The position numbers and the translations under genes were made by a program. Below are positions 160 through 46,262 of a stretch of 64,000 nt of DNA, one piece after another. The notes under the pieces were generated by a model. That model saw only the letters and a program-made list of their open reading frames with translations. It ran no database searches and had not been told where the DNA came from. The first letter of the stretch is position 1. Every line of letters starts with the position of its first letter. This DNA is from a virus. Taxonomy: Duplodnaviria; Heunggongvirae; Uroviricota; Caudoviricetes. The stretch is from the IMG/VR virus record IMGVR_UViG_3300037424_001372, positions 204,837 through 268,836 of that record, one strand, 5' to 3'.

Positions 160-1377
160 ATGCAATTAGTAGAACAACATATAATCAATCATAATTCAAA
201 ATTTTATTCTGAATGTGATTCACTGTGTTTTAAATCTAAAAATTTATATAATAGTTCATTATATTTAATCAAACAAGAATACATTAAAAATAAAATTAAT
301 ATTGTTAATAATTTACATTATTTAGTTAAAAATTCTGAACAATATAAAGAATTGCCGGCTAAAGTATCATCATCGGTATTATTGTCAGTTCAACAAAATT
401 TTAAGAGTTTTTTTAAATCCTTAGAATCATATAATAAAAACAATAATAAATTTAAGGGAAGACCACATTTACCTAAATATTTAGATAAAACAGATGGAAG
501 GTTTATAGTTTCGTATACCAATCAAGCAATATCTAAAAAAATATTTAAAAAATATAATAAAATTAGATTATCTAAAACAAATATTGAATTCAAAACCAAA
601 CTCACTGATTTTAGTGATATTAATTGTGTTAGGATAATCCCTAATTTAGGTTACTTTACAATAGAAGTTGTTTATACCATACCTGACACAAAATTAAAAG
701 ACGATAATAATAAATATATGTCAATTGATTTAGGTGTTAATAATTTGGCAACATTAACAACCAATGTAAAAGGTATTGATCCTGATATTATCAACGGTAA
801 ACCGTTAAAATCAATGAATCAATATTATAATAAAAAGAAATCTCATATTAAATCAATATTAGAAACAAGAAATAAAGCAAAGAAAAGTAAAAAAATAAAA
901 AAATTAGAGCAAAAAAGAAAACAAAAGGTAAATAATTATTTGCATAAATCAAGTAAAATAATAATAAACAAACTATTGGAGAACAATATTAACACTTTGA
1001 TTGTTGGAAATAACAAGGAATGGAAACAAGATGTTAATATTGGGGCAAAGAACAATCAAAACTTTGTATCTATACCACACAGTAGATTTATATTTATGTT
1101 GAAATATAAGTGCGAAAGAAGTGGTATTAACTTTATAACTACAGAGGAAAGCTATACAAGTAAATGTAGTTTTCTGGATCAAGAACCGATAAAAAAACAT
1201 TGTAATTATTTAGGTAAACGAGTAAGCAGAGGTATGTTTCGATCATTAAAAGGATATAATATACATGCTGACGTTAATGGTAGTTATAATATATTAAGAA
1301 AAGCAATTCCTAATGCGTTTTCAGAAGGAATAGAGGGATTAGGAGTAATCCCAAAGATCATAAAAATCTTAAAGTAG
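160..1377 (+). CDS. tnpB: TnpB/OrfB transposon-associated RuvC-like nuclease, A-type copy 1
   Basis: 405-aa ORF about 55% identical to the 44169..45437 copy. It has the RuvC-III-like ADVNGSYNILRKA tail and sits directly downstream of a TnpA fragment. Cysteine pairs for the usual Zn ribbon are absent. Confidence 0.85.
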   Translation: MQLVEQHIINHNSKFYSECDSLCFKSKNLYNSSLYLIKQEYIKNKINIVNNLHYLVKNSEQYKELPAKVSSSVLLSVQQNFKSFFKSLESYNKNNNKFKGRPHLPKYLDKTDGRFIVSYTNQAISKKIFKKYNKIRLSKTNIEFKTKLTDFSDINCVRIIPNLGYFTIEVVYTIPDTKLKDDNNKYMSIDLGVNNLATLTTNVKGIDPDIINGKPLKSMNQYYNKKKSHIKSILETRNKAKKSKKIKKLEQKRKQKVNNYLHKSSKIIINKLLENNINTLIVGNNKEWKQDVNIGAKNNQNFVSIPHSRFIFMLKYKCERSGINFITTEESYTSKCSFLDQEPIKKHCNYLGKRVSRGMFRSLKGYNIHADVNGSYNILRKAIPNAFSEGIEGLGVIPKIIKILK

Positions 1378-1478
1378 TAACGTTTTTACATGTTATTACA
1401 TACTCAAAGGATAAATCAACTAAAGTAGGTGCTGTTATAGTTAAAGATAGAGAAATAATTACTTCAGGTTACAATGGT

Positions 1479-1802
1479 ATGCCAAGAGGTGTTAACGATG
1501 ATTTAGCTTATCGACACGAAAAGCCAGAAAAATATTTTTGGTTTAAACATGCCGAAGAAAATGCTGTTATTAATGCTGCTAGACAAGGTAAAAGTACTTT
1601 AGGTTGCGATATGTATGTCAATTGGTATCCATGTTCGTCTTGTGCCGGAATTATTGTTAATGCTGGCATTAAACGAATTTATTGTGATAAAGAACCCGAA
1701 TGGAATGATGGTAAATGGGGCGAGGAATTTAAAAGGGCACAAACAATCTTAAAAGAAGGTAATGTTGAAGTAATTTATTTAGAATATGATGCACATAGAT
1801 AA
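1479..1802 (+). CDS. dCMP deaminase (cytidine/deoxycytidylate deaminase family), N-terminally truncated
   Basis: HAE and PCSSC zinc-ligand motifs and a GYNG motif. The reading frame is open from 1383 with no start codon, and its first codons are encoded by IS right-end sequence. Confidence 0.7.
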   Translation: MPRGVNDDLAYRHEKPEKYFWFKHAEENAVINAARQGKSTLGCDMYVNWYPCSSCAGIIVNAGIKRIYCDKEPEWNDGKWGEEFKRAQTILKEGNVEVIYLEYDAHR

Positions 1803-2400
1803 AGAAACATATAAAATTTCGGACAATAATTATCATAAGACCAAAACTCTTAAAACACAAATCGTTATAGGGACTACATTACGAAAGAATAATCATCATA
1901 TTACTCGATTAAAACATAAAGATTTGGGGGAATCTACTAAATGGAATACATTTACAATAAATCGTAATGGAGATATTTTTCAACATTATGATGATAAATA
2001 TTTTAGTGATTTCCTTGGGGTTAAACAAGCAGATAAAAGAACAATTTCTATTTTATTGGAGAATATGGGTTGTCTTTTTGAAGATGAGGGTAAATATTAT
2101 AATTGGCTAAATGAAGTTTGTGAAATTGATTCTGTTGTTGAAAAGAAATGGTTTGGATATGATTATTGGGAGAAGGTAACTGAAAACCAAATCAAAAGCT
2201 TAATTGGGCTTATAAAAGTATTATGTAAAAAACATGAAATTCCTAAAGAAATTATTGAATTTCAAAATTTTCATAAAGATACTTCTAAATTCAATGGAAT
2301 CGTATTTAGAAGTAATTACGATAGTAATGGTAGTGATGTTAATCCATTTATAAACACCAATGAATTAAACGAAGAAATTGTATTATATAAGAATATTTAA
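1786..2400 (+). CDS. Amidase_2/PGRP-like protein with catalytic residues substituted (probable inactive paralog)
   Basis: Co-linear similarity to the amidase at 7110..7862, but IVIGTT replaces IVLHHT and the C-terminal Zn-ligand Cys is absent. Confidence 0.4.
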   Translation: MMHIDKETYKISDNNYHKTKTLKTQIVIGTTLRKNNHHITRLKHKDLGESTKWNTFTINRNGDIFQHYDDKYFSDFLGVKQADKRTISILLENMGCLFEDEGKYYNWLNEVCEIDSVVEKKWFGYDYWEKVTENQIKSLIGLIKVLCKKHEIPKEIIEFQNFHKDTSKFNGIVFRSNYDSNGSDVNPFINTNELNEEIVLYKNI

Positions 2401-2450
2401 GTATTTATATACGATAACAAATAATTATAATAAACAGTTGAATAAATTGC

Positions 2451-2969
2451 TTGATTACTATGAAAAACATTAATGATAAAAATACGCCAATTCAAATGCG
2501 AGAATTTATGAAAAGGATGCGTGAAGGTAAGTTTGATACAAATTCAAAACCAACCTCTCAAAAAAATCTTAGTGTTAGAGATATGTTAAAAATTACTCGT
2601 GATATTCAACAAGGTAAGATTAATATTAACGAAGCTGAAAATAAAAAAACTAGTTATGACCAACCTAATGAAGAAGAAAAATTTCGAAATTTCTTTAGTG
2701 ATATGAATGTTAGTATTAAATTCATCGATTTGGAAGTTTATGATAATTTAGTATTTTGGGGAGGTACAATAGATGGTGTGATTCAATTTGTTTATAAAGT
2801 AACTCCTGATGAAAGTACTTCAGGGGTTGAATTTAATTATCTTCCAGATTTTTCGCCAGATAATCCTGAAAATGATGAAATTACTGGTCGAATAGAATCG
2901 TATTTTGATAATTTTTATAAATATTGGAGAGATAATGTTATATCATCTAACATTAATATTAACAAATAA
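2451..2969 (+). CDS. hypothetical protein
   Basis: 172-aa ORF in a co-directional gene block. Confidence 0.5.
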   Translation: MITMKNINDKNTPIQMREFMKRMREGKFDTNSKPTSQKNLSVRDMLKITRDIQQGKININEAENKKTSYDQPNEEEKFRNFFSDMNVSIKFIDLEVYDNLVFWGGTIDGVIQFVYKVTPDESTSGVEFNYLPDFSPDNPENDEITGRIESYFDNFYKYWRDNVISSNININK

Positions 2970-2978
2970 AATACTTAA

Positions 2979-3782
2979 ATGAAAAAAACGATATTAGATT
3001 TTTTAAAAAAAAATAATCATTGGGCTATTGCCTCATTGATTATAGTTATTCTAGTGGGAGGATTAGTATTAAACATACAAAAAAATAGAATAAATAATTT
3101 AAAATATGATTATAATGTTGAAGTTAAATTAAAAAATGCTTTAATTGATAGTGTGTATTATTATTATAATAAAAAAAATCAGTTGGTTGGTGAAAAATTG
3201 ACTTTACAGACAACAATTGATAATCTTAATAATATGTATGATAAACTATCTAATAATCAGAAAGAATTAATTAATTCGATTAAAGAAATTAATAAAAATA
3301 ATATTGTGATTGCAGCAGCTATTATTGAAACTAGAATAAAGGTCGATTCCATTTTACATGGTAAAAATGAGGGCGATTATACTAATATCGATACTGTCAA
3401 GAAAGTAATTTCATTTATTAACCCCAATGGTAAATATTTCCAATATAGTTTTAAAGTTAATAATGTATTACCTGCTTATAAAAATATCATACCATCTTTA
3501 ATAATAGACTCACTGAAATTTTCGAATAAACAATTAATTGATTTTCATTGGAAAGACGATAAAAAAGAAGGTTATCCGATATCATTCAGTGTAACTAATG
3601 ATAATCCATATTTTCAAACGATTAATATTGATAGCTATGCTATTCCAGAATTGGATAAACAAGAATTAAGACCAACATTTGGACAAAAAGTTGGAAAATT
3701 CTTTAAAGAAGGTGGTGGTAATATTGGATATTTTGGAATAGGTACTGCAGTAGGTGTTGGTGCTATTTTATTACTTAAATAA
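2979..3782 (+). CDS. membrane protein (N-terminal TM, Gly-rich C-terminal TM)
   Basis: Hydrophobic stretches HWAIASLIIVILVGGLVL and GYFGIGTAVGVGAILLL. Confidence 0.5.
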   Translation: MKKTILDFLKKNNHWAIASLIIVILVGGLVLNIQKNRINNLKYDYNVEVKLKNALIDSVYYYYNKKNQLVGEKLTLQTTIDNLNNMYDKLSNNQKELINSIKEINKNNIVIAAAIIETRIKVDSILHGKNEGDYTNIDTVKKVISFINPNGKYFQYSFKVNNVLPAYKNIIPSLIIDSLKFSNKQLIDFHWKDDKKEGYPISFSVTNDNPYFQTINIDSYAIPELDKQELRPTFGQKVGKFFKEGGGNIGYFGIGTAVGVGAILLLK

Positions 3783-3868
3783 TTTTTATGTTAAATTATA
3801 AAATAGCGTATTATTTTTTAATTCACTATTTTTGTACCCATATTTTTTTTTAAGTTATTCAAGTATTT

Positions 3869-4096
3869 ATGAATAACCTAGAACATAAAATGGAAGAACA
3901 AAATATTAGAAAAATTGTTAAAGATGAGATAAATAAATTTGTTAATGATTCATTGGATAAGGAAATTAAAAAGTTATTAGCAAAATCAGGCACTTTAACA
4001 AGAGACGAAAATATTACAATAATTAAAAATGCTTTAGATGCAGTATATAAAGTATTATGGACAAAAAAAGAGTTTTGGAAGTCTGATATTAAATAA
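3869..4096 (+). CDS. hypothetical protein
   Basis: 75-aa ORF. Confidence 0.4.
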   Translation: MNNLEHKMEEQNIRKIVKDEINKFVNDSLDKEIKKLLAKSGTLTRDENITIIKNALDAVYKVLWTKKEFWKSDIK

Positions 4097-4208
4097 TTTA
4101 TTGTGAATAAAAATGAATATGATATTATTTTATTAAATCATAATACTAATTTAAAATCATTGTGTTTATATAATAATAGACATATTAAGCGTAATAATAT
4201 TAATTAAC

Positions 4209-6662
4209 ATGGCAGATTTAAAACCAACATTAAGCAAACCAATGAGTACTCAATCAAAAAATTATGAAACTAATTTTAAGGCCACTATGAGTAAAAACAA
4301 TATTCATTTACATGAAAGTAATGATTTTTTAATTGAAATTGATAATAAATTAGATAATGACAAATTTTCCATTAAAAAGAAAATATTTTCATTACCTAAA
4401 ATGGAAAGTTTGGTTTTTTCAGACCCATTATTATCTACAAAATATAATGAAATGAGTGAAGAAGGTTCAAATCGTTGGGGGTATCATTATAATGAAACTG
4501 TGATGAACATATTATTTAATGATTATGTTTTGAATAGTCCTAAATATTTGCAAAAATATAAACAAGCAATCCCAAAAGAAAAAAAGAGAAGAGATAAATC
4601 GGGTATTAATCAGTTAAAAAAAGCTGGTGAAGAAAAAATGAATGTACCGACTAAATCTGTTCAAGAAAAATTTGATGTTGATGAATCTACAACGGCAAGT
4701 AGTGCTGGTGGTGCTGCTGGATATGTTGGTTATGCAGGTCCATCTGCGTGGTCGAAGAAAGGTGAACTTAGTGGTGATTTTAAAAAGAAAAAAGAAACTC
4801 CTATTGCAAATATTTCAACAATTTCTGAAAGTCAATATTTAATAGACCCAAGTGGTTTTGAAAAATATATTCAATCTTTAAATGAGGCAGATACTAGTGT
4901 TATTAGAAATAAAATTCAAGAACAGAATGATGCTGATTATATTCAAAAAAATAGTGAGGCATTTGGTAGTGAGGCCAATAATATGAATCAAAGTAATAAA
5001 GATATTATTGTTAAAGATTTAAAAACAGGTGTGCTTGATAGAGGTAATAATATTAAAGAAACTGATAAAACAAATACTCCATTATACGAAAGATTTGAAT
5101 CAAAAAAACAACAAAGATATTTTTATTATAAAGCAAACGATAATTCATTACCTGCTGAAGAAAGAGCTAAATGGAAAAAAATGGCTCAAGAATTTTCAGA
5201 TAAAACTAATTTCAATAAACTTCCTGAAAAGGTTGATGAGGGTAATAATAGAATAAATCCAAAATATACTCATTTTGCTATATATAAACCAAATGGTAAG
5301 ATAATTAATGGTTGGGAATATGCTGGTTATGACTCAGAAGAACTTAAAATGGAGAAAAAACATTATTTCTTTAATGATATTGTTGATATGGATTTTAACC
5401 CTAAAGACGTTAATATTTTAACAACAAAATCATTGCAGAAACGTGGTATTAATCCATTTGATAATAATAATTGGTATGTTGAAAGATTTAATCCTAAAGA
5501 ACAAATAAATAATATTAAAGAAGATAGTCAAACTATGATAAAAGATAATGGTAGTTCAATGGCGAATAAACAACAGCCAATTGGTGATTTAGGTAGTAAT
5601 GCATCAATGGGTATGCAAAGTAGTGGTGGTATGAATGAAGTAGAATCTTTGTTTGAAACACTTAATAATGAATTAGAGGCATTTGCTATTCACCAAAATA
5701 AATTAAAGGTTATTGCTGAAGATAGAAAACCATCTGCTTTGGTTCTTCGTGATAGGCTTGGTGCCGAAAATGAAAAAAATTTCAAGAGCGATATGAAAAA
5801 TAGTGATACTCAAGAAATTATTAATATTGAAAAAGAATTACAATATAAAGACCAACAAACAAATGTTGGTAACAAACCCGATAAACTAGGTATTGATATA
5901 GAGAAAAAAGCTATTAAAACAGGTGATATGAATGGTGAGGAATCATTTAAAAATGTTGGTGATAGTACTAATGATAAAGGTAATGAAATACCTAAACGTA
6001 ATTTAACTTCAGATGAACAAGAGGAAGTTAATATGTATCGTAATGGTATGCATAGTTTGGTTTATGATAACGAACCTAGTGAACGTTTTGAAGATAGAAT
6101 GAAAGCCGATATGGGTGATAATGTTTATGATATTAGACAAAAACAAATGGATTTCAAAGCTAAAGCACCTATGTATAATAAAGATACACAACCAACTGAA
6201 AATGGGATTGATAAAAGTCAATTTGATAAAAATGAATCTGGTTGGAACAAAAGAGAAGGACTTAAAGAATCTTTAATAACTGGTAGATATTTTAATAATT
6301 TAGGAAAAAGACGTTTAGTTGAATTTAAAGTAAGTGAAGTCGAAAATATTGAAAAAATTGACGAATCTAAATTCAGTAAAATTAATTTTGATGGTTTAGG
6401 TAATTCTTATTATAGTAAAACAATTGACAATAAAGTGGTTATTAATGAAAGTGTTGTAAATGCATTGAAAAATAATGAATATTATACTGATGGTAATAAA
6501 ATTGTTGCAACGAAAAAAACTACACTAAAATTAAATGAAAATACTCAATCAATTGAAAAACCAGTAATGAACGAACAAATAAATAAAATGAAACATTTAT
6601 TAGGTTATAAACCAGAATCATATGTGAGTACTAATAATGTTAAAAACAATAGGGGATTTTAA
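4209..6662 (+). CDS. large low-complexity K/N/E/D-rich hypothetical protein (possible virion-associated protein)
   Basis: 817-aa uninterrupted ORF. Gly/Ala-rich patch SSAGGAAGYVGYAGPSAW. Confidence 0.6.
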   Translation: MADLKPTLSKPMSTQSKNYETNFKATMSKNNIHLHESNDFLIEIDNKLDNDKFSIKKKIFSLPKMESLVFSDPLLSTKYNEMSEEGSNRWGYHYNETVMNILFNDYVLNSPKYLQKYKQAIPKEKKRRDKSGINQLKKAGEEKMNVPTKSVQEKFDVDESTTASSAGGAAGYVGYAGPSAWSKKGELSGDFKKKKETPIANISTISESQYLIDPSGFEKYIQSLNEADTSVIRNKIQEQNDADYIQKNSEAFGSEANNMNQSNKDIIVKDLKTGVLDRGNNIKETDKTNTPLYERFESKKQQRYFYYKANDNSLPAEERAKWKKMAQEFSDKTNFNKLPEKVDEGNNRINPKYTHFAIYKPNGKIINGWEYAGYDSEELKMEKKHYFFNDIVDMDFNPKDVNILTTKSLQKRGINPFDNNNWYVERFNPKEQINNIKEDSQTMIKDNGSSMANKQQPIGDLGSNASMGMQSSGGMNEVESLFETLNNELEAFAIHQNKLKVIAEDRKPSALVLRDRLGAENEKNFKSDMKNSDTQEIINIEKELQYKDQQTNVGNKPDKLGIDIEKKAIKTGDMNGEESFKNVGDSTNDKGNEIPKRNLTSDEQEEVNMYRNGMHSLVYDNEPSERFEDRMKADMGDNVYDIRQKQMDFKAKAPMYNKDTQPTENGIDKSQFDKNESGWNKREGLKESLITGRYFNNLGKRRLVEFKVSEVENIEKIDESKFSKINFDGLGNSYYSKTIDNKVVINESVVNALKNNEYYTDGNKIVATKKTTLKLNENTQSIEKPVMNEQINKMKHLLGYKPESYVSTNNVKNNRGF

Positions 6663-7023: not shown

Positions 7024-7040
7024 TAAATATTATAATCAAT

Positions 7041-8898: not shown

Positions 8899-8908
8899 AA
8901 AGTTTTAA

Positions 8909-29418: not shown

Positions 29419-29596
29419 AAAAAACAATTATTTTAATGTTTATGACTGCGATTTTAGCAGTTTCTTGTACTCGAATTGATGCTGGTTATGAAGGATGGAA
29501 CAGATAAAGGCGTACAAGATGCTACTATGGTAACTGGTAGAGTTTGGTACAACCGTTCAAAAAATCCTACTAAATCTTACCAGATTCAATATTGAT
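29415..29596 (+). pseudogene. SPFH/band-7 lipoprotein gene, 5' fragment interrupted by IS element B1
   Basis: MKKTIILMFMTAILAVSCTRIDAGYEGWNR* then, after a frameshift, DGTDKGVQDATMVTGRVWYN..., ending exactly at the IS boundary. Confidence 0.4.
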
Positions 29597-30925
29597 TTTA
29601 TTTCCTAATTCAACGAGTGTGTAATCACTACTCTCCAAAGGCGTTAATTCCCCACAACGGATGGGTACTAATTTCTTTATCATACAATAATCATCTACTT
29701 TTATTTCAGATTTATTATATAATTTTAATCCTTCATTTCTAATATTAATCGCTGCATTTAAATCTCTATCATGGACTTCTCCACAATCAGGACATGTCCA
29801 TATTCTATCTTTAAGACTAAGATTATCATTTTTATATCCACAACAATTACATAATTTACTGCTTGGAAACCATCTATCAATTTGAACTAAATCTCTTCCA
29901 TACCAAATACTTTTATATTTTAACATGGTTTTGAATTTATTTAAACTTAGTTCCTGAATACTTTTAGCTAAATTATGATTTTTCATCATTCCCCTTACAT
30001 TTAAGTTTTCCATTACCATAACTTGATTTTCGTTAAGTAATTGATTAGAAACATTATGTAGATAATTCTCTTTAATGTTGTTTAATTTTTCATGAAATAA
30101 AGCTAACTTAATTCTACACTTTTCTTTGTTTTTACTTCCAATAACTTTTCTTGACAATGATTTATTTAATCCTCTTATTTTTTTCTTATTATTTCTTTTA
30201 ATCTTAATATTTTCAAATATTTCACCTTCTGATGTTATTACAAAATCTTTAACACCTAAATCAATTCCTATAATATTATCTGTTTCAGGCAATATTTTAT
30301 CAATTGGTAAATCAATAAGAATTGATAGAAAATATTTATCTGATTTAGTTTTAGTTAAAGTACCTGACTTAATATTATCTTTAAACGTAGATAAATAATT
30401 ATGATATTTATTAGAACATTTAAACTTAACTTTCTTTAAATCAGAAGTTAATGTTATTTTATAATCAGAATATATATTTTTCTTTGATATTGCATCTAAA
30501 GGAAATCTACAACTTTGATTATTATCATGTTTTGACTTAAATTTAGGAAACCCATTTCTGTCAACAAAAAAACGTTTATAACTATCAAGTAAATTAATAA
30601 CACTTTGTTTCAATACCTTAGTATTGTGTTCTTGCAACCATTTATAATCGGGATTTTTGGTCAATTCTTGATGAAAGAAGTTACCTAATTCTTTCAAGCC
30701 TAAATTAACCTTATCATTTGCATAACTTTTCATTTTTTTATCAAGGCATTGATTATAAACAAAACGATAACTTCCAAGAAGTTTAGAAATATAATCTTCT
30801 TGAGTTTTGTTTGGATACAATCTTATTTTTACTGCCTTAATCATTGAATTAATTATTTTCTTCTGATTTCTTTTTCTTATTTTGATGACTTCTTCTTCCG
30901 TATAATTTACTACTAAAACTTGCAA
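29570..30925 (-). CDS. tnpB: TnpB/OrfB RuvC-like nuclease with Zn ribbon, B-type copy 1
   Basis: CNCCGYKND...CPDCGEVHDRDLNAAINIRNEGL. About 60% identical to 35292..36512. Confidence 0.9.
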   Translation of the reverse strand: MQVLVVNYTEEEVIKIRKRNQKKIINSMIKAVKIRLYPNKTQEDYISKLLGSYRFVYNQCLDKKMKSYANDKVNLGLKELGNFFHQELTKNPDYKWLQEHNTKVLKQSVINLLDSYKRFFVDRNGFPKFKSKHDNNQSCRFPLDAISKKNIYSDYKITLTSDLKKVKFKCSNKYHNYLSTFKDNIKSGTLTKTKSDKYFLSILIDLPIDKILPETDNIIGIDLGVKDFVITSEGEIFENIKIKRNNKKKIRGLNKSLSRKVIGSKNKEKCRIKLALFHEKLNNIKENYLHNVSNQLLNENQVMVMENLNVRGMMKNHNLAKSIQELSLNKFKTMLKYKSIWYGRDLVQIDRWFPSSKLCNCCGYKNDNLSLKDRIWTCPDCGEVHDRDLNAAINIRNEGLKLYNKSEIKVDDYCMIKKLVPIRCGELTPLESSDYTLVELGNKINIESGKI

Positions 30926-31463
30926 TTAATGTCATCATATCGTTAACAAATTCATCACTATCAGAAATATTATTGTTTTCAATTCGTTCAATTTCAACCC
31001 CATAACTATTGAAAAAAGCATTAATTAGGTTATACTGAAATCTTGTTAATCTATCTTTATTTTCAATAACAACTTTAAATATTTTTTTATCGATAACTAA
31101 TTTAATTAAATTAACAAATCCACTTCTTGTATCAGATAAACCACTACCAGTATCTTTTATCTGATAATGAACACTATATTTCTTTTTAGCACAGTATTCG
31201 CTTAAACGTTGTGATTGTCTATCTAAATCACCCTTTTGTTTTTGATCATATGAACTAACACGAGAATATGTTGCAACGGCATCAATAATAATTTCTTTTT
31301 TATATTCTCCAATATAATTCAAAATATCTTCTTCTCGATAACGTCTATGACCACCAATTGTTTTAATTGATTTTAGTTTATCTTCTACATCCCAATTTCG
31401 TAGTGAATGTTTAGACACTCCAAGTATTTCAGATGCCTTATTTAATGATATTAGTTTACTCAT
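30849..31463 (-). CDS. tnpA: IS607-family serine recombinase TnpA (MerR-like HTH plus resolvase catalytic domain)
   Basis: N-terminal HTH (ASEILGVSKHSLRNW), resolvase core (YSRVSSYDQ...DRQ) and 77-nt overlap with tnpB. Confidence 0.85.
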   Translation of the reverse strand: MSKLISLNKASEILGVSKHSLRNWDVEDKLKSIKTIGGHRRYREEDILNYIGEYKKEIIIDAVATYSRVSSYDQKQKGDLDRQSQRLSEYCAKKKYSVHYQIKDTGSGLSDTRSGFVNLIKLVIDKKIFKVVIENKDRLTRFQYNLINAFFNSYGVEIERIENNNISDSDEFVNDMMTLIASFSSKLYGRRSHQNKKKKSEENN

Positions 31464-35291: not shown

Positions 35292-36512
35292 TTAAATCCT
35301 ATTTTCTTTTCTTCCTATTTCACCGACACTTGTCTCCATAGGCGTTAATTCCCCGATACTATCAGGTATTTTATTGTTTATTATTCTTAAACCTTCATTC
35401 TTGATATTTATTGCTGCATTATAATCCCTATCTATTGACATATCACATTTAGGACATTTAAATGTCCTTTCACTCAGTGTCAAATCATTGTTCTTATAAC
35501 CACAACAACTACACAATTTACTGGAAGGATAAAACCTGTCTATTTCCACCAAATCCCTACCATACCAAATTGATTTATATGTCAATATATTCTTAAACCT
35601 ATTTAGTGATAGTTCCTGTATTGATCTGGCTAGTTTATGATTTTTCAACATACCTTTTACATTCAAATCCTCAATCACTATAACTTGGTTTTCGTTAAGC
35701 AATTGATTTGATATGGAATGTAAATAATTCTCTTTTTTATTATTTAATTTCTCATGATATTTAGCTAATTTTATTCTTGCCTTGTTCTTATTATTTGATT
35801 TATTTTGTTTTCTTGATAATGATCTTTGTAATTTACTTAATTTCTTCTGGTTATTCCTTTTAATTTTGATATTCTCAAATACTTTATTATCGGAAGTCAC
35901 AATAAATTCTTTAATGCCCAAATCTAAACCAACAACATTGTTGGTTAATGGTAGGATTTTAGCTATTGAATCTGGTAGATCGATTAAAATCGATAAGTAA
36001 TAATAACCAGATTTAGATTTAGTTAATGTTGCTGATTTAATATTATCTTTATATTCTGACAGATAATTAACATATTTCTTTGATGTTTTGAATTTAATAT
36101 CTTTAATTTGAGTGGTCAACGTTAATTTATTATCTATGAATATATTTTTCTTTGATATTGCTTGTAAAGGGAACCTACACGATTGTTTATTATCATGCTT
36201 AGATTTATATTTGGGAAAGCCATTGCCGTTAACAAAAAATCTTTTGTATGTATCGAGGACATTAATAATTGTTTGGTTCAGGACTTTGGTATTGTGTTCG
36301 TTAAGGAACGAATATTCATCATTTTTCAATAGGCCGTGGAAAAGAAAGTTACCAAGAATTTTGAGGTTAGCGGATTTTTTTGTACATTTGTAATGTTCTA
36401 TTGAAAAATTAAGTGCTTGGTTATACGTAAATCTATATGAACCAAGGAGTTTATTCATATAAATTTCTTGATTTTTATTAGGGTATAATTTAAGTTTTAA
36501 ACCTTTAAGCAT
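35292..36512 (-). CDS. tnpB: TnpB/OrfB RuvC-like nuclease with Zn ribbon, B-type copy 2 (solo, no tnpA)
   Basis: CSCCGYKNN...CPKCDMSIDRDYNAAINIKNEGL. No recombinase gene adjacent. Confidence 0.85.
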   Translation of the reverse strand: MLKGLKLKLYPNKNQEIYMNKLLGSYRFTYNQALNFSIEHYKCTKKSANLKILGNFLFHGLLKNDEYSFLNEHNTKVLNQTIINVLDTYKRFFVNGNGFPKYKSKHDNKQSCRFPLQAISKKNIFIDNKLTLTTQIKDIKFKTSKKYVNYLSEYKDNIKSATLTKSKSGYYYLSILIDLPDSIAKILPLTNNVVGLDLGIKEFIVTSDNKVFENIKIKRNNQKKLSKLQRSLSRKQNKSNNKNKARIKLAKYHEKLNNKKENYLHSISNQLLNENQVIVIEDLNVKGMLKNHKLARSIQELSLNRFKNILTYKSIWYGRDLVEIDRFYPSSKLCSCCGYKNNDLTLSERTFKCPKCDMSIDRDYNAAINIKNEGLRIINNKIPDSIGELTPMETSVGEIGRKENRI

Positions 36513-36839: not shown

Positions 36840-37121
36840 ATGTTAGGAATATGTACTTTAATTCAATATAATATGAAACTAGATGATGAAGTAATAATAT
36901 TATTATTTAAAAATAATGAAGGTGAAACTACTGTAATAACTTTAACAATAGATCAACTTTTAGATAAAACAAGAGATGATTTATACGAAATGTTAGATAA
37001 TTCTGAACCTTGCACATGCTCAAGCTGCAATAACGAAAGCCAAAACTTTTGTGATTGCGGCTCTAAATATGAAGATTATGAAATTGTTGAGGTACAGGTT
37101 TCTTGTTATAACAATATCTAA
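36840..37121 (+). CDS. hypothetical Cys-rich protein
   Basis: 93-aa ORF. Its stop codon abuts the mini-IS remnant. Confidence 0.4.
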   Translation: MLGICTLIQYNMKLDDEVIILLFKNNEGETTVITLTIDQLLDKTRDDLYEMLDNSEPCTCSSCNNESQNFCDCGSKYEDYEIVEVQVSCYNNI

Positions 37122-37345
37122 ATACACAGAAAAACCATGAAATTGGTTTACGATTTTAATAATCGATGGGATCGCTGATAATCCCCCCTATCCCATCTGT
37201 GAAAACATTTGGGATTGCTTTTCTTAAAATTAAAAAATAGTAAATTACATTAAAATAATTTACTATTTTTTAATACAGTCTGTAATCAACATGTTAAAAT
37301 ATCGCAATTGTTCAACGAAACCCACATAAAATTATGTAAGTCCCG
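37114..37345 (-). mobile_element. miniature (MITE-like) derivative of A-type IS607: right end fused to left end, no ORFs
   Basis: 37114..37230 matches 44129..44250 (tnpB 3'/right end with GGGAT...ATCCC hairpin). 37250..37345 matches 46070..46120 (left end TTTACTATTTTTAATACAGTSTGTAAT). Confidence 0.6.
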
Positions 37346-37440
37346 ATTTCCTAATTCAACGAGCGCGTAACCACTAACTCTCCAAAGGCTTTAATTCCCC
37401 ACAACGGATGGGTATTTGTTTTAATAGAGTATTTTATATA
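37346..37440 (-). mobile_element. B-type IS right-end remnant, directly abutting the mini-A element
   Basis: TTCCTAATTCAACGAGCGCGTAACCACTAACTCTCCAAAGGCTTTAATTCCCCACAACGGATGGGTA is about 90% identical to 29602..29668. Confidence 0.6.
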
Positions 37441-37591
37441 CTAATTATAAATAGTATGAAATGAAAAAAATGTTATATTTAAAAATAATTTTAACAATAT
37501 ATTTCATTAATTTTGTCTATTTCTCTATAAACTGCCAATAAACCCTGCTCCGCCGGTCACTATAATCATAGCCTGATGCCTTGTAGTATTT

Positions 37592-39620: not shown

Positions 39621-39694
39621 TTTATTATTACTTTTCTGCCACTTGGTAATTTTACTTCTATATTTTCAATAAAAACTTCATTTATTTGTAAACG

Positions 39695-39937: not shown

Positions 39938-39995
39938 TTTATTTTATTTTAAAAATTAGTAATTCTAATTCCCAAACTGGGCATATCTATAACCA

Positions 39996-40226: not shown

Positions 40227-40356
40227 ATCTTAATTAATGTTTCTGTTACAACACCTAACATGCAATATAAAACATAGACTTTCGTTGTCTTTTTTAGTTC
40301 ATACCAAATTTAATCTTTAGTTCATTCTATTTCGTATATGTTTCAAACATTTAACA

Positions 40357-40695: not shown

Positions 40696-40742
40696 AATTT
40701 TAAATTATCATTATTCATAGTTCTGTGTAAGTTAAACAACAT

Positions 40743-41030
40743 TTAAAGAAAAGATAATGCTCTCTTTAAGCAATCTGGACAGATATTAACTGTTGTACTT
40801 TCATAACCTAATAGAATGGTTGTTTCGCAATCATTGCCACACTCACGGCAAATATTTCTAGTCCATTCTTTATTACCAATAATTTCAGCGATTTCATCCT
40901 CTGTTTTAGGTTTTTCAGCCCTTAATCTATTACCCTTTTCAATTTTATCTTTTTGGGATGTATTTCTATATTGAAAGTCCCATCTTTCAGATACATTTTG
41001 AATAAGATTTGATTTTGTAATGATAATCAT
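40743..41030 (-). CDS. zinc-ribbon protein
   Basis: CRECGNDC...CPDC motif. Confidence 0.4.
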   Translation of the reverse strand: MIIITKSNLIQNVSERWDFQYRNTSQKDKIEKGNRLRAEKPKTEDEIAEIIGNKEWTRNICRECGNDCETTILLGYESTTVNICPDCLKRALSFL

Positions 41031-41353
41031 ATGTTGTTATTTAAGAAATCGTACAATTCTGCAGCAGTAGACATTTTGATTTCTTTGTCATTTTGAGTTA
41101 CTTTTAACCGATAGTTTTCTTGACCGAAATTTAGCTCCCATAAAAAATACTCAATCCAACTTTGTGAATGGTGATCGTTCATTTCTACTTGTAAAACATG
41201 AATTAAAGCATCTTGTAAAAAATGATTTCGAGGCAACAAATTAGCTTCATATGCATCTGGAAAGACTTTCCCTAAATGCCCAGAAACCTCAATATCAAAT
41301 TCAATTTGTTTTTGGATTGCATCAATTGCTTCGATAAACAATTCTTTATTCAT
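41027..41353 (-). CDS. hypothetical protein
   Basis: 108-aa ORF. Confidence 0.45.
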   Translation of the reverse strand: MNKELFIEAIDAIQKQIEFDIEVSGHLGKVFPDAYEANLLPRNHFLQDALIHVLQVEMNDHHSQSWIEYFLWELNFGQENYRLKVTQNDKEIKMSTAAELYDFLNNNI

Positions 41354-41436
41354 GATATTTTAAGTTTAAGATTAATGAAAAATAATGACAAACACAATAT
41401 GATAAAATGTAAGAAATTTTGATAAAAAATTTAACC

Positions 41437-41673
41437 TTAAAAAGATCGATACCATAGCCCTTCTATGTAATTGTCGAGTGTAGTTTTCAGTATAACATAA
41501 TTATCCATAACTTCATAGTTATTAGATAATTCTTCGAGTTGTTCAATTATTTCTTGTTTACGCTCTCTAGCTGCTTGTTCCATTGCCAGTAAACAAATAA
41601 CATTCCATGATTGACAATTATCTTTCGCTGCTTGTTCGAGTACTTCTTTTAAAATTTCTTCAAATGTTCTCAT
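41437..41673 (-). CDS. hypothetical protein
   Basis: 78-aa ORF. Confidence 0.4.
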   Translation of the reverse strand: MRTFEEILKEVLEQAAKDNCQSWNVICLLAMEQAARERKQEIIEQLEELSNNYEVMDNYVILKTTLDNYIEGLWYRSF

Positions 41674-41710
41674 ATTGTTTTTATTTTATACCTAATGATA
41701 AGCAGTCGAT

Positions 41711-42196
41711 TTAAATTGAATTATTTCTTAAATAATCTCTAACTTCCATCAATACTTTCCCCAATAGATTCTGGCCACGCCATTTAGTTTCATCATAAAT
41801 TTCAGGACTATTTTCCTCCAACCCAATACCCCAAATATTGTCATTAGGATTTACTTCAACAAGTATCTTATCTCCTGTCGATAATAATTTAGTTTTTAAA
41901 TCTTCGTTTTGCGTATATTTACAAAGATTTGCTTGAAACATCGCTTGGCATCTAACTTTAGACCATTCCTCGTCATTATAGTTTTTAACTTGTCTTCCCA
42001 ATGCTTTTGCTTCATAAGGAACAGGTGTATTTAATATTTTATTAGCAATTTCGATATCTTCGAAAAATAATGCTTTATGATATATAAACATTTGTTCAGT
42101 ATTTTTGAAAACATTATCATTTGAAAAAATTTCACAATGTTTAAAATTGCTCAGCCATTCTTTTAAAAAGAATATATGCGTGTTTGTTTCTTTCAT
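41711..42196 (-). CDS. NADAR-family protein (YbiA-like N-glycosidase / ADP-ribosyl-DNA hydrolase family)
   Basis: C-terminal NIWGIGLEE...WRGQNLLGKVLMEVRDYL matches the NADAR signature (WG.G...G.N.LG..LM.VR..L). Confidence 0.65.
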   Translation of the reverse strand: MKETNTHIFFLKEWLSNFKHCEIFSNDNVFKNTEQMFIYHKALFFEDIEIANKILNTPVPYEAKALGRQVKNYNDEEWSKVRCQAMFQANLCKYTQNEDLKTKLLSTGDKILVEVNPNDNIWGIGLEENSPEIYDETKWRGQNLLGKVLMEVRDYLRNNSI

Positions 42197-42273
42197 TTTA
42201 ATCTAATTAATATCCAATATTTATTGTAAATACGATGTAAATATGTGTGAAAATAAAAAAATGATGAATAAAA

Positions 42274-43749
42274 TTATGAATCAATTTTAGTGGTTAAAAT
42301 AATTGCAGTATTTGATGGACGACTTAATGCCACATAGCGTAATTTATTTCTTTCAACAATATCTTGATTTAAATTAATATCAATTTCATTAATCACAACA
42401 TTTTGATATGTTGAACCTTGAGCTTTGTGTATTGTGATAAAATAACCATAATCAATGTCTTTTTTTATCACATCATAATTATTTCTATATTGACCATTAA
42501 TATATTTATCGATATCTTTCATTAAAATATTACTTCGTCTAAATTCATAATATCTTTTCCAAAGTTTTTTATTTGATTTTGCTTGGTCTCTTAAAAAATC
42601 ATGCATTTGACCAAATAAATGTAAATTATTATGATTATTAACATCAACAATAAATATGTCTTGAAATTTAAACTGTTTATTATCAATCTCTTCTCTGATT
42701 TTAACTTCAAATCCTTGAATTCCGTATGAATTTTCAATTAGACTTGATTTTTCAACAACAATGTAATCAGCAGAATTTTGAATAATTATTATATTTTGTT
42801 TATCATTTAAGATTGTTCGATATCCTGTGATTAAATCATTTTTTTCAATTATATCCACATCACAACCAAATAATTCATCTCTAATTATTTTATTTGATAT
42901 CATTACTGTATTATTTTTCCAAGCCAACCCTTTCACATAATCAAAATCTTTCTTAAATTCCTCTGATTTAAATTTTTCTAAAACTAATTTTCTAAATTCT
43001 TTTTTATTTATTGTAAATATTACACCATCACCATTATCATTTATATTAGTTTTTCTTTCAAAATTACCACTAATATCTGTCAAACTATTTCTTAAATTAT
43101 CATATAAAAATAATAATGGATTATCATCTTTCTGTCTTTCAACCTTACTTAAATGATATTTTTCAATATCTTCTGAAATAAAAACTGGTGAAATTGTTTG
43201 ATTTATTGGAGGTAATTGTGCTCTATCACCCATAAACAATACTTTTGTCTTAGTTTTTTTTAGTTGTTCAATAATTAAATTAAATAATTCTGAATTTATC
43301 ATAGAACATTCATCAATAATACAAAGAGAATAGTCACCTATCCTTGGCAATGCTATTGGCGCAAATGAGGGGTCATTAGGGTTGTATGATGAAATTTCTA
43401 AATCAGGACGTAGCCCAAGCAACGAATGTAAAGTTTGACTCTGTTTTCTTGTGAATTTATAAATAATTTTACATGCTTTATGAGTAGGCGCACTCACACA
43501 AATTCCAAAACGATATTCATCAACAATTTTTTTAATACAAGTACTTTTACCAACACCCGCAAAACCAGACAACGTAAAAAACTTAGAGTTTTTATTTTTC
43601 AACCACGCTCTTATTTTATTAATTCCCTCATATTGTTCATCATTTAAGGTAATAATCTTACCATTAGATAAAATCATTTGATTATCATCAACCTTAATAT
43701 CGTTTTTAAATTTATGTGAAGGACCTAATTCAGAATCTAAATTAAACAT
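42274..43749 (-). CDS. SF1B DNA helicase, Dda/RecD-like
   Basis: Walker A GFAGVGKST. C-terminal TIHKAQGSTYQNVVI and YVALSRPSNTAII motifs. Confidence 0.8.
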   Translation of the reverse strand: MFNLDSELGPSHKFKNDIKVDDNQMILSNGKIITLNDEQYEGINKIRAWLKNKNSKFFTLSGFAGVGKSTCIKKIVDEYRFGICVSAPTHKACKIIYKFTRKQSQTLHSLLGLRPDLEISSYNPNDPSFAPIALPRIGDYSLCIIDECSMINSELFNLIIEQLKKTKTKVLFMGDRAQLPPINQTISPVFISEDIEKYHLSKVERQKDDNPLLFLYDNLRNSLTDISGNFERKTNINDNGDGVIFTINKKEFRKLVLEKFKSEEFKKDFDYVKGLAWKNNTVMISNKIIRDELFGCDVDIIEKNDLITGYRTILNDKQNIIIIQNSADYIVVEKSSLIENSYGIQGFEVKIREEIDNKQFKFQDIFIVDVNNHNNLHLFGQMHDFLRDQAKSNKKLWKRYYEFRRSNILMKDIDKYINGQYRNNYDVIKKDIDYGYFITIHKAQGSTYQNVVINEIDINLNQDIVERNKLRYVALSRPSNTAIILTTKIDS

Positions 43750-43808
43750 ATTTTAACTATTTATTTTCTTCAGAATTTAATATAATTGATTTTCTATTAT
43801 CATTTATA

Positions 43809-44153
43809 TTAAATTAATGACGATCTAATTATTTCAATTAATTGTTTTAATTGGTTTAAGTCATTAAATTTCACTTCTTCTCTTTCAAAAAATTCAACAG
43901 TATATCCCTCACCATTTTTTCTTTCATCATTGGAGTTTGAAATTAATAAACATTTTCCACCGACAACAAAAGAATAATAATGGAATCCATTTTCTTCAGG
44001 TTCAATTGAAGCATGTTCAATTTCCTTTTTAAAACCCAATTTAATTAAATCGTTGCCTTTAATTTGATTATTTTTCATATCTTTGTCAATAAAATCAATA
44101 ATATATTGAGTGACGGTAGTATGATTTATTTCAGCAACAGTATCTAAAAACAC
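43809..44153 (-). CDS. hypothetical protein (annotated N-terminus derives from IS right-end sequence; the true start is probably an internal ATG)
   Basis: The GTG start and codons LDTV are encoded by the conserved GTATCTAAAAACACAG IS-end block. Confidence 0.35.
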   Translation of the reverse strand: MFLDTVAEINHTTVTQYIIDFIDKDMKNNQIKGNDLIKLGFKKEIEHASIEPEENGFHYYSFVVGGKCLLISNSNDERKNGEGYTVEFFEREEVKFNDLNQLKQLIEIIRSSLI

Positions 44154-44168
44154 AGAAAATCCATGAAA

Positions 44169-45437
44169 TTAGTTTACGATTTTAATAATCGATGGGATTA
44201 CTGATAATCCCTCTATCCCATCTGTGAAAACATTTGGGACTGCTTTTCTTAATATATTATAACTTCCGTTCACATCGGCATTAATTACCTTATCTTCTCC
44301 CTTAATCTTATATAATCCCCTACATTTACGGTAGTCAGAGAACGAAGGTTCTTCGTTTATCTTTCCGTAAATAGGGATGTTATCCATATTAAGAAATGAT
44401 GCTTTAGAGGTATAACTTTCCTCCTGAAGTATAATATTTATTCCAGCTTTTTCGCATTTATAAACAAGCATGTTTATAAATCTACTATGTGGAATGTTAA
44501 CGAAGTTCTGATTTGAGTTTTTACTCATATCTGTGGATTGTTTCCAACCATCGTTCTTACCGATTATCATGGTGTTTGTTTGTCTTTCTTTTGCAATATC
44601 TATAACCAACTTACTTGCTTTATGCAAATAATCATCAACCTTGCGGTTGCGTTTATTCGTCATTCTGCGAGTTCGATTGCTATGTTTCTCTTTATTTCTT
44701 TTTTCTAATATAGAATTATAATGTGCAATTTTTTTATTATAAAACTGATTCATGGATTTTAATGGTCTACCATTAATAATCATAGATTTAATTTCATTAA
44801 CATTGCTAGTTATTGTTGCTAAATTATTCACGCCTAAATCTAAACTCAAATAACGATTATTGTTTTGTAATTTAGATACGTCAGGTATTTGATAAACAAT
44901 CTCTATAACATAGTGATCTAATCGTGGAACGATTCTGACAATAAGTATATTTTCTTTTTTAGTTGTTAATTGTATATTAGTTTTAGATAATGCTAAAATA
45001 CCTTTTTTAAGAAATTTTTTAGAAATGGCACCTTTTTCATAAATGACAATGAATCTACCATCTTTTTTATCTAAATAAGAAGGTAATTTAGGAATGCCTT
45101 TATATTTAGCCGGATTTTTCTTATAATCTCTAATAGAAGCGAAAAACGATTTCCAATTTCTATCCAAAACCATTAAGGTTTGGTTTGAAACCTTAAGTGG
45201 AAGTTGATACATATCGAATTGTTTATCATCTACAAGAAGCCTATTAATATCATTATAATTAAGATAATTAGCAAAGGAACGAGTTCCTTCTTGTTTTTCT
45301 TTTGATGTTTGAATAAATTCTTGTCTAATAATATGATTGGCGTAATTATATAGATTTTTAGATTTAAAACACACGCTATCACATTCAGCGTACAATGCTG
45401 AATTTTTATTGATGATATGTTTTTCTACTAATCTCAT
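44169..45437 (-). CDS. tnpB: TnpB/OrfB RuvC-like nuclease, A-type copy 2
   Basis: 422 aa, homologous to 160..1377, with ADVNGSYNILRKA tail and no Zn-ribbon cysteines. Confidence 0.85.
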   Translation of the reverse strand: MRLVEKHIINKNSALYAECDSVCFKSKNLYNYANHIIRQEFIQTSKEKQEGTRSFANYLNYNDINRLLVDDKQFDMYQLPLKVSNQTLMVLDRNWKSFFASIRDYKKNPAKYKGIPKLPSYLDKKDGRFIVIYEKGAISKKFLKKGILALSKTNIQLTTKKENILIVRIVPRLDHYVIEIVYQIPDVSKLQNNNRYLSLDLGVNNLATITSNVNEIKSMIINGRPLKSMNQFYNKKIAHYNSILEKRNKEKHSNRTRRMTNKRNRKVDDYLHKASKLVIDIAKERQTNTMIIGKNDGWKQSTDMSKNSNQNFVNIPHSRFINMLVYKCEKAGINIILQEESYTSKASFLNMDNIPIYGKINEEPSFSDYRKCRGLYKIKGEDKVINADVNGSYNILRKAVPNVFTDGIEGLSVIPSIIKIVN

Positions 45438-45439
45438 AT

Positions 45440-46006
45440 TTATTTTTCTAAAAATTTAATTATTTCTTCTTTGTTTTTCTTTTTTCTTAAACCATACATT
45501 CTTGCAGAAAATGAATATATGATAGAAATTAAATCTTGCATTAAATCGGTCTTATCATCATCAACTCTATTGACTACTAAAATTTTTTTATTATTTAAAG
45601 TAAGTAGTTTTTCAATATAATTAAACCCGAAACGGGTTAGTCTGTCTTTATTTTCAACGATTAACGCATCCCAATCATTTTGTTGTAAAAGTTTAATAAG
45701 TTTAGGTCTATGGTCGTTAAGACCGGAACCGATTTCTTTAATGTTGTAAATAATATCATAACCATTATTAATACAATAATTAACCATTCTTTCTGATTGT
45801 CTATCTAAGTTATCTTTTCTATCGGAATTAGATACTCTGGAATAAATAGCTGCTTTTTTACCATTATCAAATTCTGGGACTTTAATACAAACATGTCCAG
45901 TTTTATCAATAAAACAATTATCTATTTTTCCTGCCTTATATCTATTCCACGCTGTTCTATATGTGACATTAAATTTTTTAGCGTAGTCTGATAATTTATA
46001 ATACAT
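45440..46006 (-). CDS. tnpA: IS607-family serine recombinase TnpA (MerR-like HTH plus resolvase domain)
   Basis: YSRVSNSDRKDNLDRQ catalytic core with N-terminal HTH. Stop lies 2 nt before the tnpB start. Confidence 0.85.
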   Translation of the reverse strand: MYYKLSDYAKKFNVTYRTAWNRYKAGKIDNCFIDKTGHVCIKVPEFDNGKKAAIYSRVSNSDRKDNLDRQSERMVNYCINNGYDIIYNIKEIGSGLNDHRPKLIKLLQQNDWDALIVENKDRLTRFGFNYIEKLLTLNNKKILVVNRVDDDKTDLMQDLISIIYSFSARMYGLRKKKNKEEIIKFLEK

Positions 46007-46106
46007 TATTTTTATTATTTTAATATAAATAGTTTTTATTTTAAAAAAAGATGTGAAAATTTTAAATTATTTTACTATAATTTACTATTTTTAATACAGT
46101 GTGTAA

Positions 46107-46262
46107 TTAACATAAGTCCATTTCATGTGAGTCAAATCCCCAAGAAATGTTAGGGACTATAATGTTTTGCCTTATGCCGAAATGTTTAGCAATAACCACT
46201 TCAATTTCTGCTGTGGTGATTGGTTTTGGTTTATTTCTATTTCTATTTCCCTTAATGCCCAT
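46107..46262 (-). pseudogene. PD-(D/E)xK nuclease-like gene fragment truncated by insertion of IS A2
   Basis: MGIKGNRNRNKPKPITTAEIEVVIAKHFGIRQNIIVPNISWGFDSHEMD then runs straight into the IS left end. Confidence 0.4.

Follow-up and report, generated by a model that had tools for sequence, protein, structure and literature searches.

Four tnpB genes in a section of a jumbo phage genome

The 64,000-nucleotide stretch analyzed here (positions 204,837 to 268,836 of IMG/VR record IMGVR_UViG_3300037424_001372; hereafter the window) is a section of a jumbo phage genome with a G+C content of 26-27%, and it carries several copies of the transposon gene tnpB, some of them next to the serine-recombinase gene tnpA in the arrangement of IS607-type elements. 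A first-pass annotation of this DNA had proposed four full tnpB genes that fall into two sequence classes, A and B. We found all four open reading frames (ORFs) where they had been placed, and each of the four proteins scores above the Pfam gathering thresholds of OrfB_IS605 and Cas12f1-like_TNB; a tblastn search within the window returned no fifth full tnpB. Amino acid identities from tblastn within the window separate the A pair from the B pair (52% for A1/A2, 62% for B1/B2, and about 25% for A versus B), and the N-terminal Pfam domain HTH_OrfB_IS605 is present in the B pair only. The A class consists of A1 (160..1377, plus strand, 405 amino acids; OrfB_IS605 1e-21, TNB 5e-12) and A2 (44169..45437, minus strand, 422 amino acids), and the B class of B1 (29570..30844, minus strand) and B2 (35292..36512, minus strand, 406 amino acids).

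Two of these genes have the serine-recombinase partner that had been claimed for them. The A2 tnpA (45440..46006, minus strand) encodes a 188-amino-acid recombinase (Pfam Resolvase 1e-16), and the B1 tnpA (30849..31463, minus strand) a 204-amino-acid recombinase with a MerR/HTH_17 N-terminus (Resolvase 1e-18, HTH_17 3e-8, MerR_1 3e-7). The window also opens, as noted before, with the C-terminal fragment of a tnpA that precedes A1 (1..147, plus strand): residues 143-186 of the A2 TnpA match positions 1..132 with 73% identity (tblastn), the stop codon TAA occupies 145..147, and the remainder of the gene lies beyond the window start. A2, B1, and the A1 fragment all show the hallmark of IS607, a serine-recombinase TnpA directly upstream of tnpB on the same strand, and B2 is indeed solo, without a tnpA, as in IS1341-like elements. 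Two details of the first-pass annotation had to be amended. The MerR-type helix-turn-helix assigned to both recombinases is present in the B1 protein (HTH_17/MerR), whereas Pfam returned only the Resolvase domain for A2 at E ≤ 0.01. In addition, tnpA and tnpB had been described as overlapping, and we found that they abut, with gaps of 2 nt (A2), 12 nt (A1), and 4 nt (B1, counted from its ATG start). The apparent 77-nt overlap in B1 arises because the ORF call begins at an upstream TTG (30925); the likely start is the ATG at 30842..30844, as the Pfam HTH_OrfB_IS605 domain begins at residue 28 of the called ORF and residue 1 of B2 aligns to position 30844.

A published classification sets 'typical' TnpBs, with the RuvC-III motif DRDXN, apart from another major clade, the 'derived' TnpBs, in which this motif is NADXN (PMC10691335; Altae-Tran et al., PNAS 2023), and the RuvC-III motifs of the four proteins indicate that the two classes of the window correspond to these two published clades. 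The motif reads HDRDLNAAINI in B1 and IDRDYNAAINI in B2; both proteins keep the zinc ribbon that had been ascribed to the B class (CNCC...CPDC in B1, CSCC...CPKC in B2) and align with the catalytic regions of ISDra2 TnpB, and phmmer against the Protein Data Bank (PDB) matched the B class to ISDra2 TnpB at 2.3e-51 and to ISFba1 TnpB (8iaz) at 1.7e-43. Judged by these features, B1 and B2 are typical TnpBs (DRDXN clade, C4 zinc ribbon). A1 and A2 both read INADVNGS, with NADxN or NSDxN in their relatives, and by this motif they would belong to the derived NADXN clade.

An A class without the zinc finger

The A class had been described as having no cysteine pairs and, on that basis, as a zinc-finger-less TnpB lineage. 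We found no CxxC in A1 or A2, none between RuvC-II and RuvC-III in about 220 relatives (phage, cyanobacterial, and from other bacteria), and no zinc ribbon in a different register either, which excludes one at the sequence level. Specifically, the region between RuvC-II (EESYTSK) and RuvC-III contained no CxxC in any of the 109 top homologues in which it could be delimited, 76 of them having no cysteine there at all, and none in 110 related loci from viral and bacterial contigs (75 without any cysteine); a 50-sequence family alignment showed no conserved cysteine or histidine column in the same region. Profile alignments place the TSQ-CSFC of Cas12f opposite TSK-ASFL of the A class, and both CxxC pairs of B2 opposite non-cysteine residues. 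In the AlphaFold2 model of A2 this region consists of short beta strands (predicted local distance difference test, pLDDT, 83-88), suggesting that a cysteine-free short beta-hairpin takes the place of the zinc ribbon between RuvC-II and RuvC-III. Zinc-finger loss has been reported for large TnpB branches, and explicitly for RIIIr-4 (PMC10691335). Since the literature treats the C4 zinc finger as a feature lost in some branches, its absence does not exclude membership of the TnpB family. One statement about the end of these proteins did not hold: ADVNGSYNILRKA had been given as the C-terminal end of the A class, and 24-26 more residues come after it.

The relationship of the A class to TnpB is visible in profiles and in structure. 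A phmmer search of A2 against the PDB returned no chain at E ≤ 1, ISDra2 TnpB included. The 50-sequence A-family profile matches Cas12f at 3e-8, and hhalign aligns the A family with B2 at 97.4% probability. The full A2 model has a pLDDT of 89.4, and its Foldseek matches are AsCas12f (1.5e-15), ISDra2 TnpB (1e-13), ISFba1 TnpB (1.3e-12), and mimivirus Fanzor2 (3.3e-11), with template modeling scores of 0.55-0.60 for Cas12f and TnpB. The A class is thus modeled confidently as a bilobed TnpB/Cas12f fold. Residues D200, E339, E340, D388, and N390 are invariant in the 50-sequence alignment, so that the D-E-D catalytic triad is intact, and RNA-guided cleavage that depends on a target-adjacent motif (TAM) is predicted for the A class.

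These data also bear on whether the loss of the zinc finger marks the A class as decaying or domesticated, for example as nuclease-dead RNA-guided regulators of the TldR kind. A conserved structural motif has indeed been lost, and most relatives have no adjacent tnpA. However, the triad and its neighboring motifs are invariant across the 50 sequences, and the clade is very large and multi-copy, with at least 7,991 clusters at E ≤ 1e-5 and tblastn-confirmed stretches numbering at least 519 in viral contigs and at least 574 in bacterial genomes. An adjacent tnpA is kept in 16 of 49 viral loci (and in 8 of 59 genome loci), and the predicted RNA described below ends at the transposon boundary, so that its guide would derive from the flank and would not be aimed at a fixed promoter. 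We therefore regard decay or domestication as highly unlikely and retain the reading of the A class as TnpBs with an intact catalytic site.

Three more specific assignments were considered and rejected. The A class is not RIIIr-4, as its RuvC-III aspartate is canonical (NADVN) and no catalytic residue is rearranged. It is not TldR, an inactivated RuvC, as the catalytic residues are invariant. Nor is it Fanzor, whose distinguishing features are DPG in RuvC-I and a displaced glutamate in RuvC-II (PMC10711439, a preprint): the A class has IDLGVNN and a canonical EESYTS, and its structural likeness to Fanzor2 is no closer than that to TnpB or Cas12f. Among the top tblastn matches listed for the A class, filamentous cyanobacteria and huge phages make up the majority. 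More than one A-class copy is not unusual: several contigs of huge phages have two, and on contig L042 two A-class tnpB genes stand in tandem (5-1156 and 2501-3688).

A predicted omega-RNA at the 3' end of the A-class tnpB

A hairpin, GGGATTA-N4-TAATCCC, had been reported in the 3' end of both A-class genes and taken to sit where the scaffold of an omega-RNA would be expected. We found it exactly at 1335..1352 and 44194..44211, with a third copy carrying two mismatches at 37168..37185; three matches in the window compare with 0.29 expected, and none of 100 shuffles reached three. The hairpin lies inside a longer conserved structure that stops at the transposon right end, as would be expected of an omega-RNA scaffold, and it is best described as HP2, the second of five helices of a predicted RNA of about 113 nt. 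This RNA would begin just past the RuvC-III codons, cover the last ~27 codons of tnpB (~80 nt), and continue for about 30 nt past the stop codon. The predicted A2 scaffold (44137..44249, minus strand, 113 nt; 109 bits with our covariance model R1, of which it is a seed member) comprises HP1 (GUCCCA/UGGGAU), HP2 (GGGAUUA/UAAUCCC), HP3 (CGAUU/AAUCG), HP4 with an outer (CUAA/UUAG) and an inner (CAUGG/CUGUG) part, and the tail AUACUGU. The predicted A1 scaffold (1297..1406, plus strand; 96.3 bits, also a seed member) overlaps the last 81 nt of its tnpB, comprises HP1-HP4, and has a 3' tail ending in ...CATACTCA; its single-sequence fold is more stable than that of shuffled sequences (z = -3.1). 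Despite a DNA identity of only about 66% in their 3' parts, A1 and A2 fold into the same series of HP1, HP2, HP3, and a longer HP4 after the stop codon, and the differences between them are compensatory, as in HP1 (GUCCCA/UGGGAU in A2, AUUCCU/AGGAAU in A1).

The structure was named from the A2 fold and then tested against controls in related loci. When 148 loci are aligned by codon with the protein as anchor, 92% of HP1 is paired, compared with at most 56% when the partner is shifted, and its pair types include CG/UA/GC swaps. A MAFFT alignment of 36 loci (A3) gave 77.5% paired cells versus 34-47% when slid and a covariation score of 0.333 versus at most 0.13, values that none of 500 shuffles attained. 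The corresponding pairing in a model-fitted alignment of 91 matches, which is biased to the structure by construction, was 82.8% versus at most 50%. The covariance model matched the sense strand at the tnpB 3' end in 89 of 100 loci, about 30 of which had been used in building it. The three alignments, though constructed differently, give the same picture. From the 90-sequence MAFFT alignment RNAalifold recovered no helix but HP1, because this alignment is gappy. In an alignment of 90 loci the similarity breaks off right after a conserved AACT(A/G/C)T, and this abrupt loss therefore places the transposon right end there. The hairpin is likewise conserved outside this phage, with compensatory changes in phages, cyanobacteria, Chloroflexota, and others. 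Together, these observations show a structure that is conserved with covariation; the predicted RNA would be transcribed and processed.

The reading frame takes in three and a half of the A-class helices (within its last ~27 codons), and because of this position the compensations are visible in the protein. HP2 is a 5-bp stem in most lineages, its two inner pairs being specific to the A1/A2 group, and GC, UA, AU, CG, and GU/UG all occur at pairs 3-5. The corresponding changes alter amino acids: within E-G-x-x-V-x-P, L/F at residue 3 is accompanied by I/N at residue 6, I by Y/C, and V by H. In one lineage the Pro...Gly codons of HP1 are swapped to Gly...Pro, so that UUGGA/UCCAA replaces UCCCA/UGGGA and the stem is kept. 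This variation bears on an alternative in which a conserved C-terminal peptide, GIEGxxVxP, yields the hairpin as a by-product, its codons being self-complementary by chance and under no selection at the RNA level. That the outer G-C pairs stem from conserved glycine and proline codons and that two HP2 pairs never or hardly vary would fit such a by-product, but the variable pairs change jointly on both sides, including the non-synonymous Leu/Ile, Ile/Tyr, and Val/His combinations, and synonymous third positions match the second position of their partner. Moreover, sliding the 3' partners by 1-3 columns cuts pairing from 77% to at most 47%, and the helices go on past the stop codon (HP4). We consider an origin from the peptide alone extremely improbable.

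A second alternative is that the helices are inverted repeats of the IS607 right end that act at the DNA level and are bound by TnpA. Ends of the IS607 family are generally known to carry several TnpA binding motifs (see also PMC10690162), and the asymmetry between G-U and A-C oppositions that would mark a sense-strand RNA is missing from the codon-anchored alignment (95 versus 91). By contrast, an excess of G-U over A-C of 2:1 is seen in the MAFFT alignment and of 3:1 in the model-fitted alignment. The five separate helices covary freely over about 110 nt, whereas protein binding sites would keep specific bases, and the structure is retained at loci that have no adjacent tnpA (33 of the 49 viral loci and 51 of the 59 from genomes). 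Its position and its stop at the transposon boundary also fit characterized omega-RNAs. A DNA-level origin of the helices thus seems very unlikely to us, and we proceed with the omega-RNA scaffold as the preferred reading.

A search of the whole window against Rfam at gathering level gave no match, and a search of 20 related loci found no omega-RNA family. Over the A2 omega-RNA a single Rfam model, IS605-orfB-I (RF03065), gives any match; it scores 14.6 bits at 44134..44285 (E 0.73), an interval that finishes close to the element's right end, but this is far below its gathering score of 94.2, and we judged the match meaningless. Among the related loci, a 340-kb phage (contig L012) has a copy of the omega-RNA without an ORF (5008-5111), and in contig L011 (3795-4162) a tmRNA gene begins directly after the right end of the element.

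Element ends, gene-less derivatives, and the phage background

The A2 genes appear to form a complete IS607-type element (44137..46109, minus strand, 1973 bp) with a left end, tnpA, tnpB with its omega-RNA, and a right end. Its boundaries were set where the similarity among A2 and two gene-less copies in the window stops, and a shared core dinucleotide leaves an uncertainty of about 2 nt in them. The A2 left end (46007..46109, minus strand) is the 103 nt upstream of tnpA and is 85% identical to the left end of the first gene-less copy, mini-A (37111..37292, minus strand). In mini-A an A2-type left end (37234..37292) is fused to a right end with the scaffold (37111..37224), and blastn puts its identity to A2 at 92% for the 3' end and 85% for the left end. 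The hairpin had been reported as kept in two remnants, and this is true of mini-A, whose scaffold is intact (90.9 bits with R1, as a seed member; HP2 at 37168..37185 with one wobble pair and one mismatch). It is not true of the second, decayed mini-A (49526..49650, minus strand), where a deletion removed the 5' arm of the hairpin and the preceding helix: this copy consists of a left-end remnant (49612..49650) and a right end without HP1, HP2, and the inner HP4, with 90-92% blastn identity over 37-39 nt pieces and an R1 score of 21 bits (E 0.07, 49526..49583). An R1 scan of the window with filters off returned three full copies and this decayed one. Both remnants are mini-elements made of a left end and a right end with no ORF. 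The left end of mini-A (about 37233..37292) contains a perfect 16-bp palindrome that arose by inverted duplication.

For the B class, we found sub-threshold matches to RAGATH-18 (RF03064, gathering score 44.9) exactly at the B1 3' end and in a B-type right-end remnant. The RAGATH-18-like core of the presumed omega-RNA/reRNA of B1 lies at 29602..29641 (minus strand; 27 bits, E 0.005 in a 401-nt search), and that of the remnant at 37348..37388 (minus strand; 24.7 bits); B2 gave no match. The remnant itself (37346..37414, minus strand) is 93% identical to 29600..29667 and adjoins mini-A. ISFba1-type IS607 TnpBs have been shown by experiment to be RNA-guided nucleases that use a RAGATH-18-derived RNA (PMC11061315; Ren et al., Cell Res 2024), and the RAGATH-18-like cores of B1 and the remnant link the B class to this type. 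A weak piece resembling the B2 upstream region follows at 37420..37494, so that transposon debris is piled up over 37110..37500.

The right-end boundaries also allow the guides to be predicted. By comparison with characterized TnpB systems, the A1 guide would be the ~20 nt of the right flank at 1407..1426 (plus strand), within a dCMP-deaminase gene, and the A2 guide the right flank TGCTGAAATAAATCATACTA at 44117..44136 (minus strand), the similarity among the three copies ending at 44137. The 3' part of the A2 omega-RNA would then be the flank sequence TGCTGAAATAAATC..., and the predicted joint of the empty site would be GGACTTATGT directly followed by TGCTGAAAT. In 19 of 20 related tnpA-bearing elements, the N of an [A/G]T-N-T upstream of tnpA is the same as that of the right-end CT-N-T, and the RT-N-T/CT-N-T classes are GT, AT, and CT. 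This agreement recalls the IS607 element CboIStron, in which TGGG is both the TnpA target and the TnpB TAM, whereas the scaffold closes with TCGG, so that occupied sites are left uncut; TnpB guards this element against loss (PMC10690162; Zedaveinyte et al.).

We propose, by analogy with characterized IS605 and IS607 systems, that TnpA would excise the element by crossover at the matching core of both ends and so rejoin the left flank, ending in [A/G]T-N-T, to the right flank. TnpB with its omega-RNA would recognize the rejoined flank through a TAM of about RTNT and a guide match of ~20 nt and cut the joint, and recombination with an occupied copy, for example a co-replicating phage genome, would restore the element. 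The occupied site would be spared, its scaffold ending in CTNT and not RTNT. For IS605, gene-less elements whose omega-RNAs work in trans are on record (PMC10055086; Meers et al.), and mini-A, which keeps both ends and an intact omega-RNA, may similarly be moved by the A2 TnpA and protected by the A2 TnpB in trans. The mechanism as a whole, the use of the guide, the identity of the TAM, and the activity of TnpA and TnpB are all drawn from those systems.

Both A elements lie within the 5' part of a same-strand gene. To the right of A1, a dCMP-deaminase ORF (1407..1802, plus strand) spans positions 44-100 of the 102 of the Pfam profile, and in-frame codons extend from it back to the A1 right end; A1 appears to interrupt the deaminase gene, whose N-terminal part would lie outside the window, before position 1. 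A2 sits at the junction of two small genes (junction stretches 44110..44160 and 46100..46260, minus strand). The upstream 52-amino-acid ORF takes its stop codon TAA from the first bases of the left end, and the downstream 114-amino-acid ORF (43809..44153) is cut off from its first 5-6 codons (MKWTYV), which are now on the left flank, and stays open through an in-frame GTG from the A2 right end (44151..44153). The insertion may therefore be nearly neutral.

Overall, we consider it very probable that the window holds at least four independent IS607/IS1341-type insertions and three decayed or miniature derivatives, with TnpBs from two published clades and an omega-RNA scaffold at the 3' end of the A class. 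The first-pass observation is thereby confirmed in part, with small corrections, and its interpretation is supported: we checked the two refuting conditions named with it, a zinc ribbon in a different register and a hairpin not conserved in other genomes, and found that neither holds. A number of points weigh against this reading. The placement of A1 and A2 in the derived clade goes by motif and not by phylogeny. The single-sequence fold of A2 is no better than that of shuffles (z = -1.2), and the structure therefore rests on comparative evidence; the three window copies (A1, A2, and mini-A) belong to the R1 seed, so that their scores are not independent, and beyond the A1/A2 sub-lineage the pairing is weak in HP3 (61-75% paired) and in the innermost two pairs of HP2. 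As the G-U/A-C asymmetry is weak, the comparative data alone do not prove a sense-strand RNA over a DNA-level palindrome. The left-end motif and candidate TAM RTNT is only suggestive, as RTAT is common by chance in AT-rich DNA. Finally, in a search for an uninterrupted homologue of the gene split by A2, which would give the exact junction, only A2's own contig matched.

Several of these features have precedents: earlier work describes TnpB branches that lack the zinc finger, the NADXN clade, omega-RNAs running across the 3' end of tnpB, and derivatives without genes. The A class resembles the derived TnpB clade in its NADXN motif and in having a serine recombinase at some loci and standing solo at others, and it differs from RIIIr-4 in its canonical aspartate, which is a rearranged RuvC-III residue there (PMC10691335). 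CboIStron is built like A2 from a left end, tnpA(Ser), tnpB with an omega-RNA, and a right end; its core nucleotides match at both ends, as those of the A elements may, and its scaffold end is one base off the left-flank motif (TCGG versus TGGG, compared with CTNT versus the candidate RTNT) (PMC10690162). It differs in carrying a group I intron, in belonging to another TnpB clade, and in its motifs. A2 as an IStron was rejected, as its 103-nt left end is too short for an intron and there is no Rfam intron match. The ISFba1 type (PMC11061315; PDB 8iaz) is like B1 and B2 in its TnpB and like B1 and the remnant in a RAGATH-18-like core, although the B-class cores score below the Rfam threshold and have a shorter internal stem; the A class is not of this type. 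ISDra2 TnpB (PDB 8bf8, 8exa, 8h1j) shares its fold with the A class and also has an omega-RNA that overlaps the tnpB 3' end, whereas it comes from an IS605 element whose transposase is of the Y1 type, keeps a C4 zinc finger, and does not detect the A class by phmmer. The gene-less PATE-like IS605 elements (PMC10055086) have, like mini-A, a left and a right end and an omega-RNA but no ORF; mini-A differs in its IS607/serine-recombinase origin and its location in a phage genome.

We tentatively suggest, as a possibility that we think less probable than its converse, that three things hold jointly: the A-class omega-RNA may be an uncurated RNA family, the GIEGxxVxP tail may be shaped mainly by RNA pairing, and the phage mini-elements may supply extra guides in trans. 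The first is suggested because no Rfam model reaches threshold and no solved structure of a relative is detectable by sequence, and the second because of the Pro/Gly swaps and the Leu-Ile, Ile-Tyr, and Val-His pairings. If the suggestion is true, gene-less mini-elements in huge phages would form a multi-guide arrangement for the resident TnpB. What the analysis adds is a tested scaffold (~113 nt, five helices), a right-end boundary, and a candidate TAM, RTNT, for an abundant and uncharacterized zinc-finger-less clade of 405-430 amino acids, the items that are needed to test this clade as a compact genome editor. It also offers an example of dual coding in which RNA pairing would dictate the choice of amino acids in a protein tail. 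Huge phages gather several independent TnpB elements and their gene-less derivatives, which fits the idea that these nucleases act as homing elements between the genomes of co-infecting phages. Nothing here alters how the TnpB family is understood at present, and we regard the case as ordinary though well supported and of modest interest.

The A2 protein is found in one record only, on a 324,744-bp JGI contig, and the GenBank phage collection contains no close relative of this jumbo phage, its tnpB matches being only distant (Lak megaphage, Bacillus phage G). The largest ORF of the window (817 amino acids, 4209..6662, plus strand) has no match in Pfam or PHROG, and no tRNA was found in the window. 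PHROG matches in the window include a Dda-like helicase, an endolysin, HNH nucleases, and a PurZ-like enzyme. The last of these is a PurZ-like adenylosuccinate synthetase (51809..52978, minus strand; phrog_1211, PF00709 1e-41), which hints that the DNA of this phage may contain 2-aminoadenine (Z). HNH/homing-endonuclease-like and endonuclease ORFs at 50495..51409 and 62896..63828 (both minus strand; phrog_559 and phrog_4645) are candidates for additional selfish elements in the same phage region.

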